Assembly: GCA_025458245.1 (NCBI GenBank) | Contig: JALOSW010000002.1 | Span: forward strand, 4,361 to 68,360 | Reading direction: 5' to 3' | Source: Burkholderiales bacterium | Lineage (GTDB): Bacteria > Pseudomonadota > Gammaproteobacteria > Burkholderiales > SG8-39 | DNA length: 64,000 nt | Part shown: in pieces, positions 4,443-31,472 of the stretch | Position numbering within the stretch: position 1 is the first letter of the stretch | How the letters are laid out: each line of letters opens with the position of its first letter | The notes under the pieces: model-generated | What the model saw: only the letters and a program-made list of their open reading frames with translations | Database searches by the model: none | Told to the model about the DNA's origin: nothing | Program-made: the position numbers and the translations under genes

Positions 4443-5942
4443 TCAGGCCTCCGGCCGCATGTGCGGAAACAGGATCACGTCGCGGATCGACGGCGAGTTG
4501 GTGAACAGCATCGCGATCCGGTCGATGCCGATGCCGCACCCGGCAGTCGGCGGCAACCCGAACTCGAGCGCGCGAACGTAGTCGGCGTCGAAGTACATGG
4601 CCTCCTCGTCGCCGGCGGCCTTGGCTTTCGACTGCTGCTCGAAGCGCGACGCCTGGTCTTCGGGGTCGTTCAGCTCCGAAAAGCCGTTCGCCATCTCGCG
4701 GCCGGTGATGTAGAGCTCGAACCGGTCGGTGATCTCGGGGTTCGCGTCGTTGCGGCGCGCGAGCGGCGAAACGATCGCCGGATAGTCGACGATGTAGGTC
4801 GGCTGGATCAGCATCTGCTCGGTCGTCTCCTCGAACAGCGTGAGCTGCAGCTCGCCGATCTCGGCCGTCGGCTTGGCCTGGATGCCGACCTTCGCGAGCT
4901 CGCGCACGAGCACTTCGCGGCTCGCGAGGTCGGCGTCGGTGAAATGCGGGTGGTGCCTGCGGATCGCCTCGACCACCGTGAGCCGCGCGAACGGCTGCGA
5001 CAGGTCGACGACGTTTTCGCCATAGGGGAGCTGGGTCGTGCCGAGCACGTTCTGTGCGACCGTGCGCAGCAGCTCCTCGACGAAGTCCATGAGATACCGG
5101 TGGTCGCGGTAGGCTTCATAGAACTCCATCATGGTGAACTCGGGGTTGTGGCGCGTCGAGATGCCCTCGTTGCGGAAGTTGCGGTTGATCTCGAACACCT
5201 TCTCGAACCCGCCCACCACCAGCCGCTTGAGATAGAGCTCCGGCGCGATGCGCAGATACAGCGTCATGTCGAGCGCGTTGTGGTGGGTCACGAACGGGCG
5301 CGCCGCCGCGCCGCCCGGAATCGGCTGCATCATCGGCGTCTCGACCTCGAGATAGCCCTTGCGAACCATGAACGCGCGCATCTCCTGGATGAGGCCGCTG
5401 CGCGTCGCGAACGTCCGGCGTGCGTCCTCGCTGGTGATGAGATCGAGGTAGCGCTGGCGGTACTTCTGCTCCTGGTCGGCGAGCCCGTGGAACTTCTCGG
5501 GCAGGGGCCGCAGCGCCTTGGCGAGGAGCCGCACGGAGTCGGCGTTGACGGTGAGCTCGCCGGTGCGCGTCTTGAACAGCGTCCCCGTCACGCCCACGAT
5601 GTCGCCGAGGTCCCACTTCTTGAACGCCTCGTGCGCGTCCGCGCCCACGCCGTCGTTCGAGAGGTAGACCTGCAGCCGGCCCGTCATGTCCTGAAGCGTC
5701 GCGAAGCTCGCCTTGCCCATCACGCGCTTCAGCATCATCCGGCCCGCGAACGCGACATGGATCGGGTGAGTCTCGAACTCCTCTTTCGCGAGTTCGCCAT
5801 AGGCGCGATGCAGATCGCCCGCGAAGTGCTTGCGGTCGAAGTCGTTCGGGAACGGGTTGCCGGCGGCGCGCAGCGCGGCGAGCTTGGCGCGACGCTCTGC
5901 GATGACCTGGTTCTCGTCCTGCTGGAGCGGCTGGTCTGACAT
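4443..5942 (-). CDS. lysS: lysine--tRNA ligase (class II)
   Basis: 499-aa ORF. N-terminus [26 protein letters not shown], then class II motifs (FRNEGIS, GLGIGIDR-type [13 protein letters not shown]). Confidence 0.97.
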
Positions 5943-6094
5943 TCTTCGACTCGCGCGGGAACTACGCTAATAGATTCGGGGCAGGGGCGCCGACTGCTGC
6001 GCGCCCGGGTATGCACGCGCCCTCGGCAAGGCGTGCGCACGTCGGGACGGATGCACGTGCCTCCGCGGGCCGGCCGGGGTCGCGCCGCGCGGGC

Positions 6095-18822: not shown

Positions 18823-19389
18823 ATGATTCGACGCAGCTTCCTGAACGCCCTCGGCGCCGGTTTGGCGGCCGTCGCGCTCGCTCTCTGCGGCACGGCTTTC
18901 GCCTCGCCCGACACGAGCAGCGAGCCGGGCGGCGCCGACACGACGCTCGCGCGGTTCTTCGCGCTCGTCTCGGGCGGGAAGGGCGAGGCGCGCGACCGCG
19001 AGACCCTCAAGTCGCTGTTCCGCTCCGATGCGCGCTTCGTCTATACGCGCAGGGCCGACGGTCAGGACGCGGCGGCGGCGACGCTGCCCTCGCCCGAATC
19101 GTTCATCGATGTGATGGTGCCGCTATACGAACGCGTCGGCCGGCGCGAGAAGCCGCGCTGGATGCACGGCGACACCAAGGGCGATCTCGCGGTGATCCGG
19201 GTGCAGTACGAGTGGTGGGACGAGGGCCACGCGGCGCGGCCCGTGCAGGGCATGAAGTTCGTGACGCTCGTGCGCGACGGGGGCGCGTGGCGGATCGCCT
19301 TCATGGCATGGCAGGACGACGCGCCGACCGCTGAACTCGCTCCGGCGGCGACCCCCGCGCGCGCGCCGTCGGCGCAGCTTACGCGCTGA
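18823..19389 (+). CDS. secreted hypothetical protein (signal peptide; NTF2/SnoaL-like fold suspected)
   Basis: ORF 18763..19389. MIRRSFLNALGAGLAAVALALCGTAFA signal-like N-terminus. The fold guess is weak. Confidence 0.5.
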   Translation: MIRRSFLNALGAGLAAVALALCGTAFASPDTSSEPGGADTTLARFFALVSGGKGEARDRETLKSLFRSDARFVYTRRADGQDAAAATLPSPESFIDVMVPLYERVGRREKPRWMHGDTKGDLAVIRVQYEWWDEGHAARPVQGMKFVTLVRDGGAWRIAFMAWQDDAPTAELAPAATPARAPSAQLTR

Positions 19390-19555
19390 CACCCGCCGAG
19401 AGACGGCAGTCGCAGCTCCCTGGCCCTTTCCAAGCGGGCCCACGGAGTCTCGCCTGTCTCCTCCGGAGACCCGCTAGGGCCGCGAACCCGGCGCCGGGAA
19501 GCCGATTCCCGACAGCGCGCAAGCCCGGTCTCGGCGGCGGCTCCGCCTGCGCGCC

Positions 19556-22500
19556 TCAGTCCGGCGCGCGCCGGAGGTCGAGCGTGTAGGGAAAGCTTCG
19601 GTTCGGCCCCTCGGACGCGAGGCTCATCGGGCCGGGCGTGTGGCCGTGGTCCCAGAACCGCGCGAAGCGCCGCGCCTCGGCCTCGTTGGCGTTGACCGGG
19701 AAGGTCTCGTAGTTGCGGCCGCCCGGATGGGAGACGTGATAGGTGCAGCCGCCGATCGCGCGCCCGCTCCAGGTGTCCACGATGTCGAACACGAGCGGCG
19801 TGTTCACGCCGATGGTCGGATGGAGGGCCGAGGGCGGCGCCCACGCCTTGTAGCGCACGCCGGCGACGAACTCGCCGTGCACTCCGGTCGGATGCAGCGG
19901 CACGAAGCGGCCGTTGCACGCGACCGTGTGCCGCTCGCCCACCATGCCGCGAACCTTCACCTGCATGCGCTCGACCGAGGAGTCGACGTAGCGCGCCGTG
20001 CCTGTCCCGGACATCTCCTCGCCGAGGACATGCCACGGCTCGATCGCCTGCCGCAGCTCCATCTCGACGCCTTCGTACGCCACCGTGCCGTAGCGCGGAA
20101 AGCGGAACTCCAGAAAGGGCGCGAACCACTCGTCGCGGAACGGATAGCCGAAGGCGCGCAGGTCGCGCGCGACGTCGCGGATGTCCTCGGCGACGAAGTG
20201 GGGCAGCATCCAGCGGTCGTGGAGTTGCGTGCCCCAGTGCACGAGGCGTCCGCGGTAGGGCGCCTTCCAGAAGCGCGCCACGAGCGCGCGCAGCAGCAGC
20301 ATCTGGACGAGGCTCATGCGCGCGTGCGGCGGCATCTCGAACGCGCGGAACTCGACGAGGCCGAGCCGTCCGGTCGGACCGTCGGGCGAGTAGAGCTTGT
20401 CGATCGAGAACTCGGCGCGGTGCGTGTTGCCGGTGAGATCGACGAGCAGGTTGCGCAGCAGGCGATCGACGAGCCAAGGCTTCTCCGACTCCGTGCCCGC
20501 AGGGAGCTGCTCCTCCATCTGCTGGAACGCGATCGCCAGCTCGTAGAGGTTATCGTCGCGCGCCTCGTCGACGCGCGGCGCCTGCGAGGTCGGGCCGATG
20601 AACATCCCCGAAAAGAGATACGAGAGCGCGGGATGGTTCTGCCAGTAGGTGATCAGGCTGCGCAGCAGGTCGGGACGGCGCAGGAACGGCGAGTCTGCCG
20701 GCGTCGCACCGCCAAGGGTGACGTGGTTCCCGCCGCCCGTGCCGGTGTGCCTGCCGTCGAGCATGAACTTCTCGGTGCCGAGCCGCACCTGCCGCGCCTC
20801 GTCATAGAGGTCGGTGGTGTTGCGCACGAGCTCCGCCCACGCTGCCGCAGGCTGGACGTTCACTTCGATCACGCCCGGGTCCGGCGTCACGGCGAGCGAC
20901 TTGAGACGCGGATCGCGCGGTGCCGGATAGCCCTCCACGCGGATCGGCCGCCTCAGCCGCGCCGCGACGCCCTCGAGCGCCGCGGCGAGATCGACGAAGC
21001 GCTCGAGATGCGTGAGCGGCGGCAGGAAGACGTGCAACCGGCCGCCCCGCGGCTCGATCACGAGCGCGGTGCGCACCACCTCGCGCGGCTCGGGGGCCGC
21101 GCGCGTCGCGCGGCCGGGGCGATGGGTGATCCGCTCGTTCCGCTCGTGCGCGTCGTGGAGTTCCTCGCGCGGGTCGAAGGGGTCGCGATCGAACGCAGGC
21201 TCGACATCGGCGGGGGTGACCTCGGGAAGCGACGCGAGCGGCAGCCGGTAGCCGGCGGGCGAGTCGCCAGGCAGGAGGTACAGCTGCTCGCGCCGCAGCG
21301 GCCAGGCCGAGCTTTGCCACGCGGTCGCCTTATCCGTCCCGGCGGCGCGCAGCGGCAGCACGAATGCGGCCGGCTCGTCGAGGCCGCGTCCGAGCGAGCG
21401 GGCCAGCCGTGAGCGCTCGTCGTAGTCTTTCATCGGCACGCGCGCCGGATCGAGGTTTGGCGGGAGGTTCGCCTCCAGCGCGAGGAGCGGCAGCGGGTCC
21501 TCGTAGGCGGTGATGACGAAGGACTTCGCCAGCCCCAGGGCTTCGGCGAGCGCGTCGGCGAAGTCGCGCGCGTCGTCGAGGGTCGCGTCGGCGGGCAGGT
21601 CTTCGGTGGCGATGAGCCCCGGGTCGCGCCACAGCGGCTTGCCGTCTGCGCGCCAGTAGATCGGCAGCGCCCAGCGCGGCAGCGGCTCGCCCGGATACCA
21701 CTTGCCCTGCCCGTAGAAGACGAGGCCCCCCGGCGCGAACCGGGCCCGCAGCCGTTGCGCGAGCTTCTCCGCGAGCGCCCACTTTGCCGGCGAGAGCGCG
21801 GTGAAATTCCACTCTTCCCCGTCCATGTCCGCCACCGACACGAACGTCGGCTCGCCGCCCTGCGTGAGCCGCACGTCGAGCGCCGCGAGGTCGTGGTCGA
21901 CGCGGTGGCCGAGCGCGTCGATGGCGGCCCACTCGCCGTCGGAATAGGGTTTGGTGACGCGCGGATCCTCGTGGATGCGCGTGACCTTCATCTCGAACTG
22001 GAGCGTCGACTCGCACGGGTCCGTGTAGCCGACGACCGGGGCGGCCGACGCGGGGAACGCGGTCGCGGCGAGCGGGATATGCCCTTCGCCCGCCAGCAGG
22101 CCCGAGGTTGGATCGAGTCCGATCCAGCCCGCGCCGGGCAGGTAGACCTCGGCCCATGCGTGCAGGTCGGTGAAATCGTGGGCCGGACCGGCGGGACCGT
22201 CGAGCGGTTTCACGTCGGCTGCGAGCTGGACGAGATAGCCGGACACGAAGCGCGCCGCGAGCCCGAGGCGGCGCACGATCTGCACGAGCAGCCAGCCGGT
22301 GTCGCGGCACGAGCCGCAGCCGAGCGTGAGCGTCTCCTCGGGCGACTGCACGCCCGGCTCCATGCGCACGAGGTACTTCACGTCCTGCTGCAGCCGCTGG
22401 TTGAGGTGAACGAGCATGTTCACCGTGTTGTCGCCGGGCTTGAATCCCGAGCGCCGGAAGGATTCGATCCACGCCGCGAGCCGCGGGCCCATGTCTTCGC

Positions 22501-22858
22501 ACACGAGATAGGGCGCGAGCTCGGTGCGGAGCGCCGCAGGGTAGTCGAAGGGGAATTGCTCCGCCCAGCTCTCGACGAAGAAGTCGAACGGGTTGATGAC
22601 GGTCATGTCGGCGACGAGGTCGACCGTCACCGCCATCGACTCGGCCTTCTCGGGAAAGACGTAGCGCGCGATCCAGTTCCCGTAGGCGTCCTGCTGCCAG
22701 TTCACGAACTGCTTCGCCGGCTCGACCTTCAGCGAATAGGACAGGATCGGCGTGCGGCAATGCGGCGCGGGGCGCAGCCGGATCTCGTGCGGCGAAAGCG
22801 CCACCGGCCTGTCGAACGCATACCGGGTGGCGTGATGCAGGGCGACGCGGATGGCCAT
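19556..22858 (-). CDS. large transglutaminase-family protein (Bact_transglu_N + transglutaminase core + DUF2126-like region)
   Basis: 1100 aa. N-terminus MAIRVALHHATRYAFDRPVALSPHEIRLRPAPH. Catalytic-type Cys in GCGSCRDTGWLL and His/Asp in DLHAWAEVYLPGAGWIGLDPTSG. Confidence 0.9.
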   Translation of the reverse strand: MAIRVALHHATRYAFDRPVALSPHEIRLRPAPHCRTPILSYSLKVEPAKQFVNWQQDAYGNWIARYVFPEKAESMAVTVDLVADMTVINPFDFFVESWAEQFPFDYPAALRTELAPYLVCEDMGPRLAAWIESFRRSGFKPGDNTVNMLVHLNQRLQQDVKYLVRMEPGVQSPEETLTLGCGSCRDTGWLLVQIVRRLGLAARFVSGYLVQLAADVKPLDGPAGPAHDFTDLHAWAEVYLPGAGWIGLDPTSGLLAGEGHIPLAATAFPASAAPVVGYTDPCESTLQFEMKVTRIHEDPRVTKPYSDGEWAAIDALGHRVDHDLAALDVRLTQGGEPTFVSVADMDGEEWNFTALSPAKWALAEKLAQRLRARFAPGGLVFYGQGKWYPGEPLPRWALPIYWRADGKPLWRDPGLIATEDLPADATLDDARDFADALAEALGLAKSFVITAYEDPLPLLALEANLPPNLDPARVPMKDYDERSRLARSLGRGLDEPAAFVLPLRAAGTDKATAWQSSAWPLRREQLYLLPGDSPAGYRLPLASLPEVTPADVEPAFDRDPFDPREELHDAHERNERITHRPGRATRAAPEPREVVRTALVIEPRGGRLHVFLPPLTHLERFVDLAAALEGVAARLRRPIRVEGYPAPRDPRLKSLAVTPDPGVIEVNVQPAAAWAELVRNTTDLYDEARQVRLGTEKFMLDGRHTGTGGGNHVTLGGATPADSPFLRRPDLLRSLITYWQNHPALSYLFSGMFIGPTSQAPRVDEARDDNLYELAIAFQQMEEQLPAGTESEKPWLVDRLLRNLLVDLTGNTHRAEFSIDKLYSPDGPTGRLGLVEFRAFEMPPHARMSLVQMLLLRALVARFWKAPYRGRLVHWGTQLHDRWMLPHFVAEDIRDVARDLRAFGYPFRDEWFAPFLEFRFPRYGTVAYEGVEMELRQAIEPWHVLGEEMSGTGTARYVDSSVERMQVKVRGMVGERHTVACNGRFVPLHPTGVHGEFVAGVRYKAWAPPSALHPTIGVNTPLVFDIVDTWSGRAIGGCTYHVSHPGGRNYETFPVNANEAEARRFARFWDHGHTPGPMSLASEGPNRSFPYTLDLRRAPD

Positions 22859-22870
22859 GACTGAAGTTCA

Positions 22871-22965
22871 GGATCTAGGATCTAGCATCCAGGATTCAGG
22901 ATTCAGGATTGAGGATCTAGGATCGAGCTCTCAATCCTCAATCCTCAATCGTCAATCCTGAATCC
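22871..22965. repeat. palindromic array of 7-bp tandem repeats (8 x GGATnnA, GAGCTC centre, 5 x TCAATCC-type inverted units)
   Basis: Read directly: ggatcta ggatcta gcatcca ggattca ggattca ggattga ggatcta ggatcga gctc tcaatcc tcaatcc tcaatcg tcaatcc tgaatcc. In-register arm pairing is about 30/35. Confidence 0.9.
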
Positions 22966-22968
22966 TGC

Positions 22969-23718
22969 TCACTGCGGCGTGCGCTCCTCGTCCCAGCTGG
23001 GGTTCGGGAGCTGCGCGAACACGCGCCGCAGGCCTTCGCCCCACTGGGTGTGGATCATGTTGAAGTACGGATCGGATTCGAGGATGCGCCGTTGCATGCC
23101 GACGCGCAGCGCGTCGCGCTCGCACATGAGGAGGTCGATCGGCAGCCCGACGGAGACGTTGGAGCGCATGGTCGAGTCGAACGACACCAGCACGCACTTG
23201 GTCGCGTCGGTGAGCGACGTCGTCGGCTTGATCACGCGGTCGATGATCGGCTTGCCGTACTTGGTCTCGCCGATCTGGAAGAAGGGCGTCTCCGGCGTCG
23301 CCTCGATGAAGTTGCCTTCCGCGTAGACCATGAAGAGCCGCATCGGCTCGCCCTGGATCTGGCCGCCGAGGATGAAGGAGGCGCTCGAGTCGATGTTGTT
23401 CTGCATCAGATAGGCGCCGTCGCGGCGCTTCACCTCGCGCAGGCAGTCGCCGAGAAGCTGCGCCACCTCGAACATCGACTGGGCGTTCCATAGTGTGAGC
23501 GTCCCGTCGACGCGCCGCGCGTTCTGGTCGAGCAGGTTGATGGCGTTCTGCGTGACCGACAGGTTGCCCGAGCTCATGATCACCACGAGCCGGTCGCCGG
23601 GGCGCTCGAACACGCGCATCTTGCGAAAGCTCGATACGTTGTCGACGCCCGCGTTGGTGCGCGAGTCCGAAGCGCACACCATGCCGGCGTCGATGAGGAT
23701 GCCCACGCAGTACGTCAT
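22969..23718 (-). CDS. Anbu-type proteasome beta-subunit-like protease (T1 family)
   Basis: ORF 22969..23781, start MTYCVGILIDAGMVCASDSRTNAG. Thr follows the initiator Met directly, with no propeptide. Overall pattern matches bacterial Anbu proteins. Confidence 0.88.
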   Translation of the reverse strand: MTYCVGILIDAGMVCASDSRTNAGVDNVSSFRKMRVFERPGDRLVVIMSSGNLSVTQNAINLLDQNARRVDGTLTLWNAQSMFEVAQLLGDCLREVKRRDGAYLMQNNIDSSASFILGGQIQGEPMRLFMVYAEGNFIEATPETPFFQIGETKYGKPIIDRVIKPTTSLTDATKCVLVSFDSTMRSNVSVGLPIDLLMCERDALRVGMQRRILESDPYFNMIHTQWGEGLRRVFAQLPNPSWDEERTPQ

Positions 23719-23826
23719 GGCCGTTTTTCCGCGCCGCTGTCGAAGAGCCGCGAGCATAGAGAATCGGCGGCGCGGCGGCAAGGAAGCGAAACACGCATCG
23801 CCGTGCGCACTGTCCCCGCGAGGCGC

Positions 23827-24786
23827 CTACGCGTAGACCGGCACCAGGAAATGCCGGTTGATCTCGTCGTTGAGCGACTGCAGCTTCTCCAGGAACTCGA
23901 GCAGATACTCGTGCAGCCCGACCGCGAAGATGCGCTCGGTCTTGCCGTAGTGGAGCTGCGCATGGATCTCCCCCGCGAGCCGCTCGGGCTCGAGCTTCGC
24001 GCCGGCCGAGAGCTCCTGGAGGATTTCGTACAGCTGGTTCATGCAGGCGTGCAGCGACCGCGGCATGTCCTCGCGCAGCACCAGCAGCTCGGCGACCCGC
24101 AGCGGCGTGATCACGTCGCGGTAGATCTTCCGGTAGGCGTTGAAAGCCGACACCGAGCGCAGCAGCGCCGACCACTGGTAGTAGTCGACCGCGCCGCCCA
24201 CGTCGTGGATGCTCGGCAGCAGCGTGTGGTACTTCACGTCGAGGATGCGCGCCGTGTTGTCGGCGCGCTCGAAGAAGGTCCCCAGGCGGATGAACTGATA
24301 GCCCTCGTCGCGCAGCATGGTGCCGAACGTGACGCCGCGGAACAGGTGGCTGCGGTCCTTCACCCAGTCGAAGAACGCCGAAACCCCCTCGGCGGTCAGC
24401 GTGCCGTAGGACTTCTCGCGGATGCGCAGCCACGTCTCGTTGAGGCTTTCCCACATCTCCACCGAAATCGCGCCGCGCTGCGCCCGCGCGTTCTCGCGCG
24501 CGTGCTGCAGGACCGAGTAGACCGACGAGGGGTTCGACGCGTCGAGCACCATGAAGCGCAGCACGTTCTCGGCGGTGAGCTCGGGATAGCGCTGGTAGTA
24601 AGTCGTGGCGAGCCCGGTGATGACGAGCGGCACCGCCCACGGCTCGGCCCATTTCTCGCCGGGCTCCATGACGCGGTAGGGGAGCATCGACATGCGGTAG
24701 GTCACGTCCAGCATGCGCGCGGTGTTCTCGGCGCGCTCCACCTGGCGCGACATCCAGAACAGGTCGTTCGCGGTTCGGCTCAGCAT
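23827..24786 (-). CDS. alpha-E domain-containing protein
   Basis: 319 aa. MLSRTANDLFWMSRQVERAENTARMLDV and FFERADNTARILDVKY are the duplicated alpha-E signature helices. Confidence 0.9.
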   Translation of the reverse strand: MLSRTANDLFWMSRQVERAENTARMLDVTYRMSMLPYRVMEPGEKWAEPWAVPLVITGLATTYYQRYPELTAENVLRFMVLDASNPSSVYSVLQHARENARAQRGAISVEMWESLNETWLRIREKSYGTLTAEGVSAFFDWVKDRSHLFRGVTFGTMLRDEGYQFIRLGTFFERADNTARILDVKYHTLLPSIHDVGGAVDYYQWSALLRSVSAFNAYRKIYRDVITPLRVAELLVLREDMPRSLHACMNQLYEILQELSAGAKLEPERLAGEIHAQLHYGKTERIFAVGLHEYLLEFLEKLQSLNDEINRHFLVPVYA

Positions 24787-24788
24787 GG

Positions 24789-26213
24789 CTACTGCTCCAG
24801 AACCCAGGTGTCCTTGGTCCCGCCGCCCTGGGACGAGTTGACCACCAGCGAGCCCTCTTTCAGCGCTACCCGGCAAAGGCCGCCGGGGGCCATGCGGATC
24901 TCGCGGCCGGACAGGACGAACGGACGCAGGTCGATGTGGCGGGGCGCGATCCCGGACTCGACGAAGGTCGGGCAGGTCGAGAGCGCGAGTGTGGGCTGCG
25001 CGATGTAGTTGTCGGGCTTCGCGATGATGCGCTCGCGGAACTCGGCGCGCTGCGTCATGGTCGCCGCCGGTCCGACCAGCATTCCGTAGCCGCCCGAGCC
25101 GTGCACCTCCTTCACGACCAGCTCGTCGAGATGCTCCAGGACGTACTTGAGATCGTCGCGCTTGCGCAGCTGCCAGGTCGGCACGTTGGCGAGGATCGGC
25201 TCCTCGGCGAGATAGAAGCGGATCATGTCGGGCACGTGCGGATACATCGACTTGTCGTCGGCCACGCCCGTGCCGATCGCGTTCGCGAGCGTCACGCGCC
25301 CGGCCCGGTACGCGCCGAAGAGCCCCGGCACGCCGAGAATCGAGTCCGGGCGGAAGACCTGCGGGTCGAGGAAATCGTCGTCGATGCGCCGGTAGATCAC
25401 GTCGACGCGCTTCGGTCCGCGCGTCGTGCGCATGTACACCGTGTCGTCGCGCACGAAGAGATCCTGCCCCTCGACGAGCTCCACGCCCATCTGCTGCGCG
25501 AGGAACGTGTGCTCGAAGTAGGCCGAGTTGTACTGTCCGGGCGTGAGCAGCGCCACCGTCGGGTCGGCGACGCCCTCCGGCGCCGCCTGCCGCAGGGTGT
25601 CGAGCAGGAGGTCGGGATAGTGATCGACCGGCGCGACCTGGTAGCGCGCGAAGAGCTCCGGGAAGAGCCGCATCATCACCTTGCGGTCCTCGAGCATGTA
25701 AGAGACGCCCGAGGGCACGCGCAGGTTGTCTTCGAGCACGTAGAACTCGCCCTTGCCGGCGCGCACGATGTCGACCCCGGCGACGTGCGCGTAGATCGCG
25801 TTGCGCACGTCGAGGCCCTGCATGACCGCACGGTACTGGCTGTTCTCCAGCACCCTGCGCGGGGGAATGATTCCTTCCTTCAGGATCGCCTGCTCGTGAT
25901 AGACGTCGTGCAGGAAGAGATTCAGCGCCTTCACGCGCTGCTGCAGGCCGCGCTCCAGCGTCGCCCACTCGTCGGCGGCGAGGATGCGCGGCACGATGTC
26001 GAAGGGGATCAGACGCTCGGTGCCGGTCTCGTCGCCGTAGACGGCGAACGTGATGCCGACGCGGTGGAACATGACCTCGGCCTCGCGGCGCTTTTGCGTG
26101 AGCCGGTCCGGCGGAATCGAGGCGAGCCAGTCCGCGTAGCCGCGGTAGTGCGGCAGGACGCCGCCGTCCAGGCCGCACATCTCGTCGTAGAACACCTGCG
26201 GAGCGGCAGTCAT
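24789..26213 (-). CDS. circularly permuted type-2 ATP-grasp protein
   Basis: 474 aa. FYDEM...HYRGYADWL...REAEVMFHRVGITFAVYGD...ERLIPFDIVPRI is the typical CP_ATPgrasp N-terminus. Ends 2 nt before the alpha-E start. Confidence 0.9.
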   Translation of the reverse strand: MTAAPQVFYDEMCGLDGGVLPHYRGYADWLASIPPDRLTQKRREAEVMFHRVGITFAVYGDETGTERLIPFDIVPRILAADEWATLERGLQQRVKALNLFLHDVYHEQAILKEGIIPPRRVLENSQYRAVMQGLDVRNAIYAHVAGVDIVRAGKGEFYVLEDNLRVPSGVSYMLEDRKVMMRLFPELFARYQVAPVDHYPDLLLDTLRQAAPEGVADPTVALLTPGQYNSAYFEHTFLAQQMGVELVEGQDLFVRDDTVYMRTTRGPKRVDVIYRRIDDDFLDPQVFRPDSILGVPGLFGAYRAGRVTLANAIGTGVADDKSMYPHVPDMIRFYLAEEPILANVPTWQLRKRDDLKYVLEHLDELVVKEVHGSGGYGMLVGPAATMTQRAEFRERIIAKPDNYIAQPTLALSTCPTFVESGIAPRHIDLRPFVLSGREIRMAPGGLCRVALKEGSLVVNSSQGGGTKDTWVLEQ

Positions 26214-26269
26214 CGTTTTGGCGGTTCCTTGGGCTTCACGGGCAGTCTAGCTCACTGCACCCTTCGAAT

Positions 26270-26286
26270 TGCAACCTGCGTGCCAG
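26270..26286 (-). promoter_or_regulatory. sigma-54 (RpoN) -24/-12 promoter
   Basis: Minus strand reads CTGGCACGCAGGTTGCAA. This is TGGCACG-N4-TTGCA with exact consensus spacing, about 57 nt upstream of the ATP-grasp ATG. Confidence 0.75.
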
Positions 26287-26419
26287 GCGCGGGGCAAGGC
26301 CAAAACGCGCTTCGGATCAGTGGCTTGAATCGTCGCCTCGCAGAGCCGGCGACGGCGATGCACCGAATCGGCCGGAGTCGCCCCGGCTTGGTGCGCCGCG
26401 CGGTCGGCGGAGGTCCGCT

Positions 26420-26428
26420 TGCTATACT
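26420..26428 (+). promoter_or_regulatory. candidate extended -10 promoter (TGcTATACT)
   Basis: TGCTATACT lies 52 nt upstream of the GTG at 26480. No clear -35. Confidence 0.3.
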
Positions 26429-26479
26429 CGCGCGCCGTGCGGTCGCAGGGCGCCGCGCGCGGGATCCGAGGAACGAGAA

Positions 26480-27337
26480 GTGGCGAGCGTGATCGAGGCG
26501 ACGGTGCGGGTGCGGGGCGATGCCGGGCGGCTGGAGTCGTTCCGCCGCGAAGCCAACGCGCTGCTCGACGCCGAGTTCGAGCACGAGTATCGCGAGCTTC
26601 ATACCGCCGAGGGGCTCGACTGGCGCATCAAGGCGCGCAAGGGGCTGCCGTTCCCGGCCTTCGCGAGCGCGTCGAGCGCGTTTCCGGAGCTTCTGGTCGA
26701 GATCGAGTGGCGCAACCGCGGCGACGGCACGAGCGGCCAGGCGCTCGTGCAGGCCGGCAAGCTCGTCACCCAGGACGAGCGCCCCTCCGGCCTGCCCCCC
26801 GAGCTTTCGCTCTCGGTCCGGGCCGCGGCGGACGGCACGATCGGGCTCGCGATGGTGCTCAAACGCCGGCGCGACGGCGCATGGGTCGGGTACGCGCTCA
26901 CCGAGTCGCAGCATGCGTTCTTCCGCCTCGCGCCGAGCGCAGAGGGCGAAGAATTGGTCACCACCGACGGGGTCGAGCCCGAGTGGGCCGAGCGCTGGAC
27001 GCTCGCGCCGTCGGGAAACCGGTACGAGGCGCTCGAGACACCCGAACTCGTTCCGGACGACGTGCTCGAGGAACTCGATTGGCTCGCGCACGCGTTCGCC
27101 GACGAATGGATCTGGTTCGCCGAGGCGCCGGCCGACGAAACGGCGGTGGAGCGCCACCGGTTCGAGCTCTACGGCTATCGCGTGCACCCGGCGAACCTCC
27201 GCGCCGAGAAGCTCAAGCGACTCATGACCGCCGAGTCCGGCGGCCTCGTCTACGAATCGCTCGACGACGCGGCGCGCCGCGCCGCCGGCGTCGTCGCGAC
27301 GCACTGGCTGCAGTCCGCAGCCGCAGGGAGAGCGTGA
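26480..27337 (+). CDS. hypothetical protein, no recognisable domain
   Basis: 285-aa ORF. GTG start with GAGGAA 7 nt upstream, strong GC3 bias, balanced acidic composition. Preferred over antisense ORF 26252..27304, which is Arg/Ala/Pro-rich. Confidence 0.7.
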   Translation: MASVIEATVRVRGDAGRLESFRREANALLDAEFEHEYRELHTAEGLDWRIKARKGLPFPAFASASSAFPELLVEIEWRNRGDGTSGQALVQAGKLVTQDERPSGLPPELSLSVRAAADGTIGLAMVLKRRRDGAWVGYALTESQHAFFRLAPSAEGEELVTTDGVEPEWAERWTLAPSGNRYEALETPELVPDDVLEELDWLAHAFADEWIWFAEAPADETAVERHRFELYGYRVHPANLRAEKLKRLMTAESGGLVYESLDDAARRAAGVVATHWLQSAAAGRA

Positions 27338-29291: not shown

Positions 29292-31472
29292 ATGGTTTCC
29301 GTCGCCCGCATCGCCGCCAACGATTCCGCCGAAGTGCTCGACACCGTCGCCGCCGGCCTCGACGGAGCCGAGCGCGATCTCGTGGCGCGCGCACTCGATT
29401 TCGCCGCGCCCGTCTACGAAGGCAAGACGCTCGGCACCGGCGAGGGCGCGATGCAGCACGCGTTCGGCGTCGCGCGGCGGCTCGCCGAGCTGAAGCTCGA
29501 CGGCGAAGCGCGCGCCGGCGCGATCCTGTTCGGCATCCCCTCGTACCTCGACGACGCCCACGGCAAGCTCGATCAGGAGTTCGGCGCCGCGGTCACCACG
29601 ATCGTCGAAGGCATCGCGCGGCTCAACACGCTGCGCGTCGTGACGCGCGGTCTCGCGGCGCAGGAGAAGAGCGCGAACAAGGCGGCGCAGGCCGAGGTGC
29701 TGCGCAAGATGCTGCTCGCGATGGTCGAGGACATCCGCGTCGTGATCATCCGGCTCGCGAGCCGCACCCAGACGCTCGCCTTCCTCGCCAGGGCGGCCGA
29801 CGAAGTCCGCCGCCCGGTGGCGCAGGAAACGCTCGATCTCTACGCTCCGCTCGCCAACCGGCTCGGCATCTGGCAGCTCAAGTGGGAACTCGAGGACATG
29901 TCGTTCCGGTTCCTCGAGCCGGATCTCTACAAGCGCATCGCGTCGATGCTCGACGAGAAGCGCGGCGAGCGCGAGTCCTTCATCGCCGCGGCCATGGCGA
30001 CGCTCTCGCGCGAGCTGGCGGCGGCAGGGGTGAAGGCCGAGCTCGCGGGCCGGCCCAAGCACATCTTCTCCATCTACAACAAGATGCGCGGCAAGGGGAT
30101 CGATTTCTCGGAGCTCTACGACGTCCGGGCGCTGCGCATCGTCGTCGACACGGTGAAGGACTGCTACACGGCGCTCGGCGTCGTGCACAACCTCTGGACG
30201 CCGATCCCGAAGGAGTTCGACGACTACATATCGCGCCCGAAGGGCAACGACTACCGCTCGCTCCACACTGCGGTGGTCGGGCCGGACGGACGCCCGGTCG
30301 AAGTGCAGATCCGCACCTGGGAGATGCACCGGCACGCGGAGCTCGGCGTTGCGGCGCACTGGCGGTACAAGGAGAAAGCGAAGCACGACCCCTTCGACGA
30401 GAAGATCGCGCTGCTGCGGCAGGTGCTCGCGTGGCGCGACGAGGTCGTCGACTCGTCCGACTGGAAAGAGCAGTTCAAGCGGGCCGCGCTCGACGAGACC
30501 GTCTACGTGCTCACGCCGCAGGGGCGCGTGGTCGACCTGGCGCATGGCGCGACGCCGATCGACTTCGCCTACGCGCTGCACACCGATCTCGGCCACCGAT
30601 GCCGCGGCGCGAAGGTGGATGGCGTGATGGTGCCGCTCGACTACAAGCTGCAGAACGGCCAGCGCGTCGAGATCATCGCCGCCAAGACCGGCGGCCCGTC
30701 GCGCGACTGGCTGAACCCGAACCTCGGCTATCTCGCCAGCTCGCGCGCGAAGAACAAGGTACGGCAGTGGTTCAACGCGACCGAGCTCGCACAGACGATC
30801 GCCGACGGCCGCGCGGCGGTGGAGCGCGAGATGCAGCGCGAGGGCCAGACCGGCGCGAGCCTCGACGCGCTCGCGCAGACGTTCGGCTACGACAAGACGG
30901 ACGATTTCTTCGCCGCGGTCGGGCGCGAAGTGATCCGGCCGCGCGAGATCCAGAACGCGCTGCGCGGCGAGGCGCCGGCTGCGCCGGAGCCCGAGCCCGT
31001 CGTCGCGAAGAAGTCGAAAGCCGAGGCGGGCGGAAGCGGCATCCTGATCGTGGGCGTGGACCGCCTGCTCACGCAACTCGCGCGGTGCTGCAAGCCCGCG
31101 CCGCCCGACGGCATCGTGGGGTTCGTCACGCGCGGCCGCGGGGTCTCGATCCATCGTGCCGGCTGCAAAAGCCTCGCGGCGCTCCTGCGGGCGCATCCGG
31201 AGCGCGCCATCGAGGCGCACTGGGGCGAGCAGAACGCCGGCGTGTTCGCCGTCGACCTGGTCGTGCAGGCCCACGACCGGCAGGGCCTGCTGCGCGACGT
31301 CTCCGAAGTGTTCTCGCGCCAGCGGATCAACGTGACCGCCGTCAACACGGCGAGCCGGCAGCATGTCGCGACCATGGCGTTCACGGTCGAGGTCGCCGGC
31401 GTCGACCAGCTCGCGCGCGCGCTCGCGGAAATCCGCGAGGTGACCGGCGTCTTTTCGGCCGGACGGCGGTAG
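29292..31472 (+). CDS. relA: GTP pyrophosphokinase / (p)ppGpp synthetase RelA
   Basis: 726 aa from MVSVARIAAND. Degenerate HD region, RelA_SpoT synthetase (RPKHIFSIYNKM...DVRALRIVV...YRSLHTAV), TGS (VYVLTPQGRVVDL) and ACT-like C-terminus. Confidence 0.95.
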   Translation: MVSVARIAANDSAEVLDTVAAGLDGAERDLVARALDFAAPVYEGKTLGTGEGAMQHAFGVARRLAELKLDGEARAGAILFGIPSYLDDAHGKLDQEFGAAVTTIVEGIARLNTLRVVTRGLAAQEKSANKAAQAEVLRKMLLAMVEDIRVVIIRLASRTQTLAFLARAADEVRRPVAQETLDLYAPLANRLGIWQLKWELEDMSFRFLEPDLYKRIASMLDEKRGERESFIAAAMATLSRELAAAGVKAELAGRPKHIFSIYNKMRGKGIDFSELYDVRALRIVVDTVKDCYTALGVVHNLWTPIPKEFDDYISRPKGNDYRSLHTAVVGPDGRPVEVQIRTWEMHRHAELGVAAHWRYKEKAKHDPFDEKIALLRQVLAWRDEVVDSSDWKEQFKRAALDETVYVLTPQGRVVDLAHGATPIDFAYALHTDLGHRCRGAKVDGVMVPLDYKLQNGQRVEIIAAKTGGPSRDWLNPNLGYLASSRAKNKVRQWFNATELAQTIADGRAAVEREMQREGQTGASLDALAQTFGYDKTDDFFAAVGREVIRPREIQNALRGEAPAAPEPEPVVAKKSKAEAGGSGILIVGVDRLLTQLARCCKPAPPDGIVGFVTRGRGVSIHRAGCKSLAALLRAHPERAIEAHWGEQNAGVFAVDLVVQAHDRQGLLRDVSEVFSRQRINVTAVNTASRQHVATMAFTVEVAGVDQLARALAEIREVTGVFSAGRR

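Follow-up and report, generated by a model that had tools for sequence, protein, structure and literature searches.

Gene content of the locus

We analysed a 64-kb stretch (hereafter the window, about 70% G+C) of the genome of a Burkholderiales bacterium (contig JALOSW010000002.1, positions 4,361 to 68,360 of the forward strand), in which four co-oriented open reading frames (ORFs) occupy positions 19556 to 26213 of the minus strand, each with an ATG start and an in-frame stop codon. They encode, in this order, an ATP-grasp protein, an alpha-E protein, the proteasome-like protein Anbu, and a fusion of a transglutaminase-like module with a DUF2126 module (Table 1). This order and orientation had been read in a first-pass annotation, made by a model from the sequence and its ORFs without database searches, and both stand. 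So does the 2-nucleotide (nt) gap that it placed between the ATP-grasp and alpha-E genes, the junction being ...CAG TAG cc ATG.... We are highly confident that the locus belongs to the known Anbu operon family, of which it is a self-contained member with four genes. All four proteins are encoded with 100% identity (tblastn) on contig JAOQIA010000390 of an uncultured Burkholderiales metagenome-assembled genome (MAG; GCA_025491015.1), where the exact Anbu protein is found. No paralogues of the operon genes were found within the window.

Table 1. Coordinates of the genes, modules and non-coding elements of the Anbu operon locus, numbered as in the window.
Feature	Coordinates	Strand	Matches and diagnostic elements
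Fusion protein, DUF2126 module (residues 281-1100), putative glutamine-synthetase-like amidoligase	19556..22018	-	PF09899
Fusion protein, transglutaminase-like module (residues 1-280 of the 1100-residue protein)	22019..22858	-	Bact_transglu_N and Transglut_core; Cys184-His233-Asp249
Spacer repeat, tandem GGATTSA-type heptamers in inverted orientation forming a long hairpin	22867..22967		Arms 22890-22927 and 22930-22967
Anbu, Anbu-1 type proteasome beta-subunit homologue without propeptide, 249 residues	22969..23718	-	PDB 5LOY and 5NYW/5NYJ/5NYF; Thr1, Asp17, Lys32
Alpha-E, COG2307 type, all-helical, 319 residues	23827..24786	-	PF04168
Circularly permuted type-2 ATP-grasp, COG2308 type, putative carboxylate-amine ligase, 474 residues	24789..26213	-	PF14403, PF04174, PDB 3N6X
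Sigma-54 (RpoN) -24/-12 promoter element TGGCACGCAGGTTGCA, 57 nt upstream of the ATP-grasp ATG	26270..26285	-	Exact TGGCAC-N5-TTGCW
NtrC-type enhancer-like dyad GCACCAAGCCGGGGC, 109 nt upstream of the -24 TGG	26380..26394	-	One mismatch to GCACC-N5-GGTGC

The four proteins

The ATP-grasp protein matched the Pfam families PF14403 (CP_ATPgrasp_2, E 1.7e-169) and PF04174 (E 3.4e-156). Its closest solved relative is PDB entry 3N6X, to which it aligned over residues 8-473 (E 2e-227) and which was deposited as 'putative glutathionylspermidine synthase', a name that is a structural-genomics label and not a tested function. The ATP-grasp protein of the Yersinia operon liberates phosphate from ATP (PMC6376114). 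The alpha-E protein matched PF04168 (E 1.3e-102), with the alignment starting at residue 1, and contains two ER(A)(E/D)NTAR motifs. Its AlphaFold2 model is all helix, with a predicted local distance difference test score (pLDDT) of 77.6, but only one of the five models was confident. No relative of alpha-E was found in the PDB either by sequence, the matches to Hsm3 (E 0.35) being noise, or by fold (best match, E 0.66). The first-pass annotation had named both proteins correctly, as a circularly permuted type-2 ATP-grasp and an alpha-E protein.

Anbu begins with MTYCVG, and it too had been rightly described as a T1 protease whose threonine directly follows the initiator methionine. It matched the solved Anbu structures 5LOY (3e-102), 5NYW, 5LOX, 5NYJ and 5NYF, and across 23 homologues residues T2, D18 and K33 (as numbered in the ORF) vary little or not at all. 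Among the Pfam families that the first-pass annotation expected, the ATP-grasp, alpha-E, Bact_transglu_N, Transglut_core and DUF2126 families were all recovered, but the generic Proteasome family gave 20.8 bits, just under its gathering cut-off of 22.4; there was also a weak match to TIGR03634. Counting positions from Thr1, the residues of the S1 pocket are T20, F30, S48, L52 and T55, as compared with T20, F30, T48, L52 and S55 in Pa-Anbu, provided that no indel separates the two proteins within these 55 residues. By position the pocket is thus like that of Anbu-1, which is narrow and amphiphilic where that of Anbu-2 is basic (Fuchs et al. 2017). The best PDB match, 5LOY, is an Anbu-1 consensus design, and the protein is assigned to Anbu-1. 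The Anbu protein of Pseudomonas aeruginosa binds proteasome inhibitors, a T1A mutant having been made to substantiate Thr1 as the catalytic residue, and Anbu proteins form open-ring dodecamers, not closed 20S barrels (PMC5666114). Anbu shares the N-terminal nucleophile (Ntn) hydrolase fold and the catalytic Thr1 with HslVU and the bacterial 20S proteasome; unlike them, it has no ATPase partner and no propeptide, falls below the Pfam Proteasome cut-off and is not regulated by heat shock (PMC3235984).

The product of the last gene had been called a giant transglutaminase, with an intact Cys-His-Asp core and a DUF2126-like region. The core is real: the protein matched Bact_transglu_N (5e-26) and Transglut_core (3e-16), Cys184, His233 and Asp249 are invariant across 44 homologues, and by fold the N-terminal module matched the transglutaminase-like cysteine protease 3ISR (E 4.5e-10) and TgpA (6G49/6G4H). 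However, about three quarters of the protein consists of DUF2126, matched at full length (PF09899, E = 0, profile positions 1-826). PF09899 is described by Pfam as a 'putative amidoligase', and the operon is thus predicted to encode a second ligase-type enzyme besides the ATP-grasp protein.

A Pfam scan at E <= 10 returned no second family for the DUF2126 region, and neither sequence nor profile searches found a PDB relative of it, the matches being confined to the N-terminal transglutaminase part. Many charged and histidine residues of the region are invariant across the same 44 homologues. The AlphaFold2 model of the fusion is of moderate quality (pLDDT 65.5). When it was used in Foldseek, 17 of the 50 top PDB matches of the DUF2126 part were chains of glutamine synthetase, GmaS or glutamine synthetase homologues, all weak (E 0.09-0.5, TM-score 0.25-0.30); they include gamma-glutamylmethylamide synthetase and a 'novel glutamine synthase homolog'. 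The invariant stretches GTGGGNH and VEFRAFEMPP presumably recall motifs of glutamine synthetase, which we use as a lead only. It is plausible, but no more than that, that DUF2126 is a glutamine-synthetase-like ligase.

A layout variant made of two modules

The association of ATP-grasp, alpha-E, transglutaminase and Anbu genes is published, with roles in tagging or peptide synthesis proposed and no substrate reported (PMC3235984, PMC5666114, PMC6376114), in agreement with what the first-pass annotation had stated. Our literature search found no later functional study of the Anbu operon and no function assigned to it. It is among the most widespread bacterial clusters without an assigned biochemical function, and it bears on the origins of proteasomes. 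We know of no demonstrated substrate for any protein of the ATP-grasp, alpha-E or DUF2126 families found in this operon.

The canonical operon of Pseudomonas and Yersinia (P. aeruginosa PA1733, P. putida PP_2685-PP_2688) is built from the same four families (COG2308, COG2307, COG1305 and Anbu). In both the canonical operon and that of the window, alpha-E directly follows ATP-grasp, Anbu is propeptide-free with Thr1, Asp17 and Lys32, and there is no AAA+ partner. Anbu type, ATP-grasp/alpha-E adjacency and the transglutaminase triad all place the window's operon in the family (Valas & Bourne 2008; Iyer et al. 2009), but it does not have the published gene order. The canonical order is ATP-grasp, alpha-E, a small transglutaminase-like gene and Anbu (PMC6376114, PMC3235984), whereas in the window the transglutaminase-like gene comes after Anbu and is fused to an 820-residue DUF2126. 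This layout, which is common in databases, is not described in PMC6376114 or PMC3235984; Sulfuriferula multivorans TTN (L063) is one cultured organism that has it.

We also looked at related loci. In 185,579 species genomes, at least 592 Anbu loci were recovered by a profile-guided scan, and the nearest 80 (Anbu 59-76% identical) were taken as the census. They come from Casimicrobiaceae and other Burkholderiales, Rhodocyclales, Nitrosomonadales, Methylococcales, Chromatiales and Nitrospira. The exact gene order of the window was found in 44 of the 80, so the altered order is a layout variant of the family and not evidence against membership. A transglutaminase-DUF2126 fusion follows Anbu in 57 of the 68 loci whose downstream side could be assessed. 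The first-pass annotation was therefore right that the transglutaminase is of the large fused form here, but wrong to present this as a trait of this copy: in this Anbu clade, a large fused transglutaminase downstream of Anbu is the usual arrangement. The families themselves are very large: Anbu, the fusion and alpha-E each had at least 8000 scored homologues, and DUF2126 has 6254 cluster representatives (50% identity, E <= 0.001), among them fused forms of about 1030-1190 residues and forms of about 750-850 residues.

In the variants of the common order seen in L053, L059 and Nitrospira, the genes are still clustered. In three Nitrospira loci (L065, L070 and L082), the ATP-grasp/alpha-E pair comes after Anbu and the fusion and is divergent from them, on the opposite strand. 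In two close relatives (Anbu 87% identical; L204, 4337-10191, and L205, 1135-6989), Anbu and the fusion are present with no ATP-grasp or alpha-E gene within 6 kb. In L053 and L059 the fusion gene stands first in the cluster. A Methylococcales MAG (L042, 5267-14128) has six genes, namely a small transglutaminase, a second Anbu, ATP-grasp, alpha-E, Anbu and the fusion; the same six-gene cluster occurs in L024, L046 and L064, the second Anbu paralogue being 38-53% identical, and every Anbu copy in it adjoins a transglutaminase-domain gene. Altogether, Anbu and a transglutaminase-domain gene form the most stable pair, and ATP-grasp and alpha-E form a second, separable pair. Anbu and the fusion are consequently the two proteins to reconstitute together.

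Two further observations were made on the closest loci. In L204 and L205, Anbu is preceded by an alpha/beta hydrolase gene and a 204-codon gene of unknown function. In L203, the closest distinct relative (Anbu 94% identical), alpha-E was not called and its tblastn match is split near position 5000 (region 4950-6000), which suggests a frameshift or an assembly error.

A conserved sigma-54/NtrC-type promoter

Upstream of the ATP-grasp gene lies TGGCACGCAGGTTGCA, the sole exact match to TGGCAC-N5-TTGCW in the 64 kb, where 0.01 would be expected by chance. The element recurs in relatives: 39 of 53 related loci have TGGC-N7-TTGC no more than 150 nt before the ATP-grasp gene, compared with 0.34% of random same-strand control windows. 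The negative control was the sequence before Anbu in 15 loci where no ATP-grasp pair precedes it, and there the motif is essentially absent. Further upstream in the window is the dyad GCACCAAGCCGGGGC; dyads of the GCACC-N5-GGTGC type, with at most one mismatch, occur in 25 of the 53 related upstream regions (5.2% of control windows), mostly 97-119 nt upstream of the -24 element. A scan of positions 19000-27000 found neither a sigma-70-like promoter nor an intrinsic terminator.

These elements indicate that the operon is probably under sigma-54/nitrogen control. The conserved promoter fits the nitrogen-linked induction published for the canonical operon in P. putida, where the operon is among the most induced genes when nitrogen is limiting (PMC3235984, note added in proof) and where, in nitrate as compared with ammonium, PP_2685 (Anbu) and PP_2688 (ATP-grasp) are up by log2 values of 4.44 and 3.99, respectively (PMC8050072). 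The nitrogen-type regulation suggested for the window thus agrees with that of the canonical operon. The first-pass annotation had proposed comparing operon knock-outs under nitrogen limitation, and the idea of a link to nitrogen limitation finds support, at the level of sequence, in the conserved promoter. As this type of control appears to be conserved well beyond Pseudomonas, nitrogen limitation is the condition under which to look for a function. New in the present work are the conserved sigma-54/NtrC signal, the division of the cluster into two modules and the presence of two predicted ligase-type enzymes. This copy itself is an ordinary member of a known family and adds no new kind of system, and as its host is uncultured, the locus alone makes the question of Anbu function no more tractable.

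A known RNA or riboswitch in the leader or in the spacer before the fusion gene was considered and rejected, Rfam giving only sub-threshold hairpin look-alikes (MIR7994 on the spacer repeat, 33 bits against a gathering score of 100). In the upstream regions of the related loci, enriched tRNA-like 7-mers were first seen and led to a divergent tRNA-Val(CAC) gene. In loci of the Casimicrobiaceae type (L009, 7239-7313, and the same position in L010, L013, L014, L017, L020 and L039) this gene stands about 250-300 nt before the ATP-grasp gene; the window has none.

Proposed role of the operon

The best overall explanation, to which we give a probability of roughly 55%, is that the window contains a four-gene Anbu operon, induced through NtrC and sigma-54, whose products make and break amide bonds in the cytoplasm and thereby turn over peptides or proteins. 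Transcription would most likely start at the sigma-54 promoter when nitrogen is limiting, upon activation by an enhancer-binding protein of the NtrC type, and the products would be cytoplasmic. Two of the predicted activities would be ATP-dependent carboxylate-amine ligases, one the ATP-grasp protein with alpha-E as its obligate partner and the other the DUF2126 domain; two would be amide-bond hydrolases or transferases, the Cys-His-Asp transglutaminase-like domain and the Thr N-terminal nucleophile protease Anbu. At the level of substrates, where the compounds acted on, the kind of mark and the sequence of reactions are all inferred, a mechanism is offered only tentatively. The ligases might attach amide-linked marks, probably of the gamma-glutamyl or isopeptide type, to peptides or proteins; the thiol domain might edit or remove these marks, or deamidate glutamine; Anbu might then hydrolyse the marked polypeptides, and the net result would be the mobilisation of amino-acid nitrogen.

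Several points weigh against this explanation. Sigma-54 promoters also serve regulons that are not concerned with nitrogen, and the NtrC-like site of the window carries one mismatch. The assignment of DUF2126 to the glutamine-synthetase-like ligases comes from a Pfam description and from weak fold matches (Foldseek E >= 0.09) obtained with a mediocre model. Two ATP-consuming ligases in a scavenging pathway are not obviously economical. The 110-nt hairpin spacer before the fusion gene, which has no obvious Shine-Dalgarno sequence, means that the last gene may be expressed differently from the first three. Finally, purified Anbu proteins did not cleave any of the standard proteasome substrates, and the operon proteins did not associate into stable complexes (PMC6376114; PMC5666114), negative results in vitro that weigh against simple models. 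The functional readings considered here are not separable by sequence analysis, and we set out below how probable we take the others to be.

It is possible, though not probable, that the operon carries out a small-molecule conjugate cycle, in which the ligases would make, and the thiol domain and Anbu would break, a low-molecular-weight amide such as a gamma-glutamyl-amine or a glutathionylspermidine-like peptide. Escherichia coli Gss combines an ATP-grasp synthetase with a cysteine amidase, and gamma-glutamylation in the Puu/Pau pathways uses amines as nitrogen source. Gss and PuuA/PuuD likewise pair an ATP-dependent amide ligase with a Cys-based amide hydrolase, nitrogen-linked regulation is plausible, and by analogy the ligase-like and thiol hydrolase-like domains joined in one chain of the fusion may mirror these synthetase/amidase pairs. 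They differ from the window's operon in that its thiol domain is transglutaminase-like, not a CHAP domain or a class-I amidotransferase, and in that alpha-E and a proteasome-like protease are additional. The 3N6X match (E 2e-227) of the ATP-grasp protein points to glutathionylspermidine synthase by name, but that name is the structural-genomics label mentioned above. The weak fold matches of DUF2126 to glutamine synthetase, gamma-glutamylmethylamide synthetase and a glutamine synthase homolog also suit such a cycle, as does nitrogen-type regulation, which would be appropriate for amine scavenging; yet no transporter or amine-catabolic gene is conserved beside the cluster in the related loci. 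The inactivity of Anbu on peptide substrates in vitro (PMC6376114) can be counted in its favour, whereas the ring-like, multi-subunit architecture of Anbu, with its many identical sites, and the binding of peptide-type proteasome inhibitors argue for polypeptide substrates (PMC5666114).

The spacer between Anbu and the fusion gene

The spacer between the Anbu and fusion genes (positions 22859-22968, 110 nt) is mostly filled by a repeat, as the first-pass annotation had noticed in stating that the fusion is set off from Anbu by a structured repeat. The hairpin is confirmed: its 38-nt arms are 87% complementary, and the RNA has a minimum free energy of -59 kcal/mol (z = -6.4). The heptamer motif has 7 matches (0.13 expected), all in the spacer and none elsewhere in the window. 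However, the repeat is a strain-specific structured insertion and not a conserved part of the system. The hairpin is absent from L203 and from L204 and L205, whose Anbu proteins are 94% and 87% identical and whose spacers differ from that of the window. In other lineages the spacer carries unrelated insertions, a near-perfect 281-nt palindrome of -185 kcal/mol in L036 (10727-11007), tandem 12-13-mers in L005 (3051-3357) and G/C-rich hairpins in L057 (10724-10968), and it seems to be a recurrent landing site for repeats. Arrays of (AGGATTG)n are scattered over at least 120 unrelated metagenome contigs with GC fractions of 0.36-0.69, the hairpin form being found in only 8 of 80. A role of the repeat as a conserved regulatory part was rejected on these three grounds. 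It would at most tune how strongly the last gene is expressed relative to the others.

This structure raises the question of whether the locus forms two transcription units in this strain, the hairpin ending or attenuating the ATP-grasp/alpha-E/Anbu transcript and the large gene being expressed separately. Such an arrangement concerns expression and is compatible with all three functional readings. We regard it as unlikely. A hairpin of this size and stability fills the spacer, which exceeds the approximate median of about 27 nt in the related loci, and there is no obvious Shine-Dalgarno sequence in the 20 nt before the start of the 1100-residue ORF (CTAGATCCTGAACTTCAGTC, window 22859-22878). 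On the other hand, there is no T-run after the stem and the terminator scan found nothing there; the spacer contains no sigma-70- or sigma-54-type promoter motif; and in the relatives the two genes are as a rule on the same strand with short spacers, often overlapping. Hairpins of this kind, moreover, stabilise the upstream mRNA more often than they terminate transcription.

Comparison with the Pup-proteasome system

The Pup-proteasome of actinobacteria (PafA, Dop, Mpa and 20S) is similar in that a Thr protease stands beside a putative glutamine-synthetase-like amidoligase, a functional analogy only. In contrast to that system, a Pup-like gene, an AAA+ ATPase and an alpha subunit are lacking around the operon. 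No Pup-like, AAA+ unfoldase or PafA/Dop Pfam family was found among the genes called in the 10 kb to each side, and none of the four operon proteins matched PafA or Dop. The locus is not a Pup-proteasome system.

A counterpart of pupylation built from other parts is quite unlikely. Here the Anbu and fusion pair would be a Gram-negative, nitrogen-starvation-controlled equivalent without an AAA+ unfoldase: DUF2126, in the place of PafA, would add a tag or a gamma-glutamyl-type isopeptide mark, the fused transglutaminase-like domain would prepare or remove it as a Dop-like deamidase or de-tagging enzyme, Anbu would degrade the marked proteins, and ATP-grasp/alpha-E would supply or extend the tag. 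It would amount to a ubiquitin- or Pup-like degradation pathway in proteobacteria. The tight linkage of Anbu to the fusion, which are adjacent in the 57 of 68 loci and stay together when the ATP-grasp pair lies elsewhere, speaks for it, as does the transglutaminase-domain gene beside each Anbu paralogue of the six-gene cluster in L042, and comparative genomics had earlier led to a proposal of tagging (Iyer et al. 2009, cited in PMC5666114 and PMC6376114). Against it stand the lack of a small tag gene, an AAA+ unfoldase or an alpha-type subunit in or near the cluster, the lack of any sequence-level relation between DUF2126 and a solved ligase, and pull-downs that gave no complex of Anbu with other operon proteins (PMC6376114). 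As for a defence system, that possibility was rejected since none of the four proteins matches the PADLOC models.

Neighbouring genes

Upstream of the operon, on the opposite strand, lie genes for a 285-residue protein without a Pfam match, an alpha/beta hydrolase, a peptidase M90 and a RelA/SpoT protein; downstream there is a convergent ORF for a secreted-looking 188-residue protein, followed by ComEC. All of these were considered as parts of the system and rejected, as each of them occurs in at most 5 of 82 loci. These neighbours not being conserved in the related loci, the four genes are the unit. The RelA/SpoT gene, for a (p)ppGpp synthetase/hydrolase, lies 3 kb from the operon (window 29292-31472, other strand); since it is adjacent in only 5 of the 82 loci, this closeness is probably coincidental. 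In the matching MAG contig, RelA/SpoT is followed by genes for a CYTH-CHAD protein and a SLAC1-type channel, which correspond to about 31.5-33.0 kb of the window.

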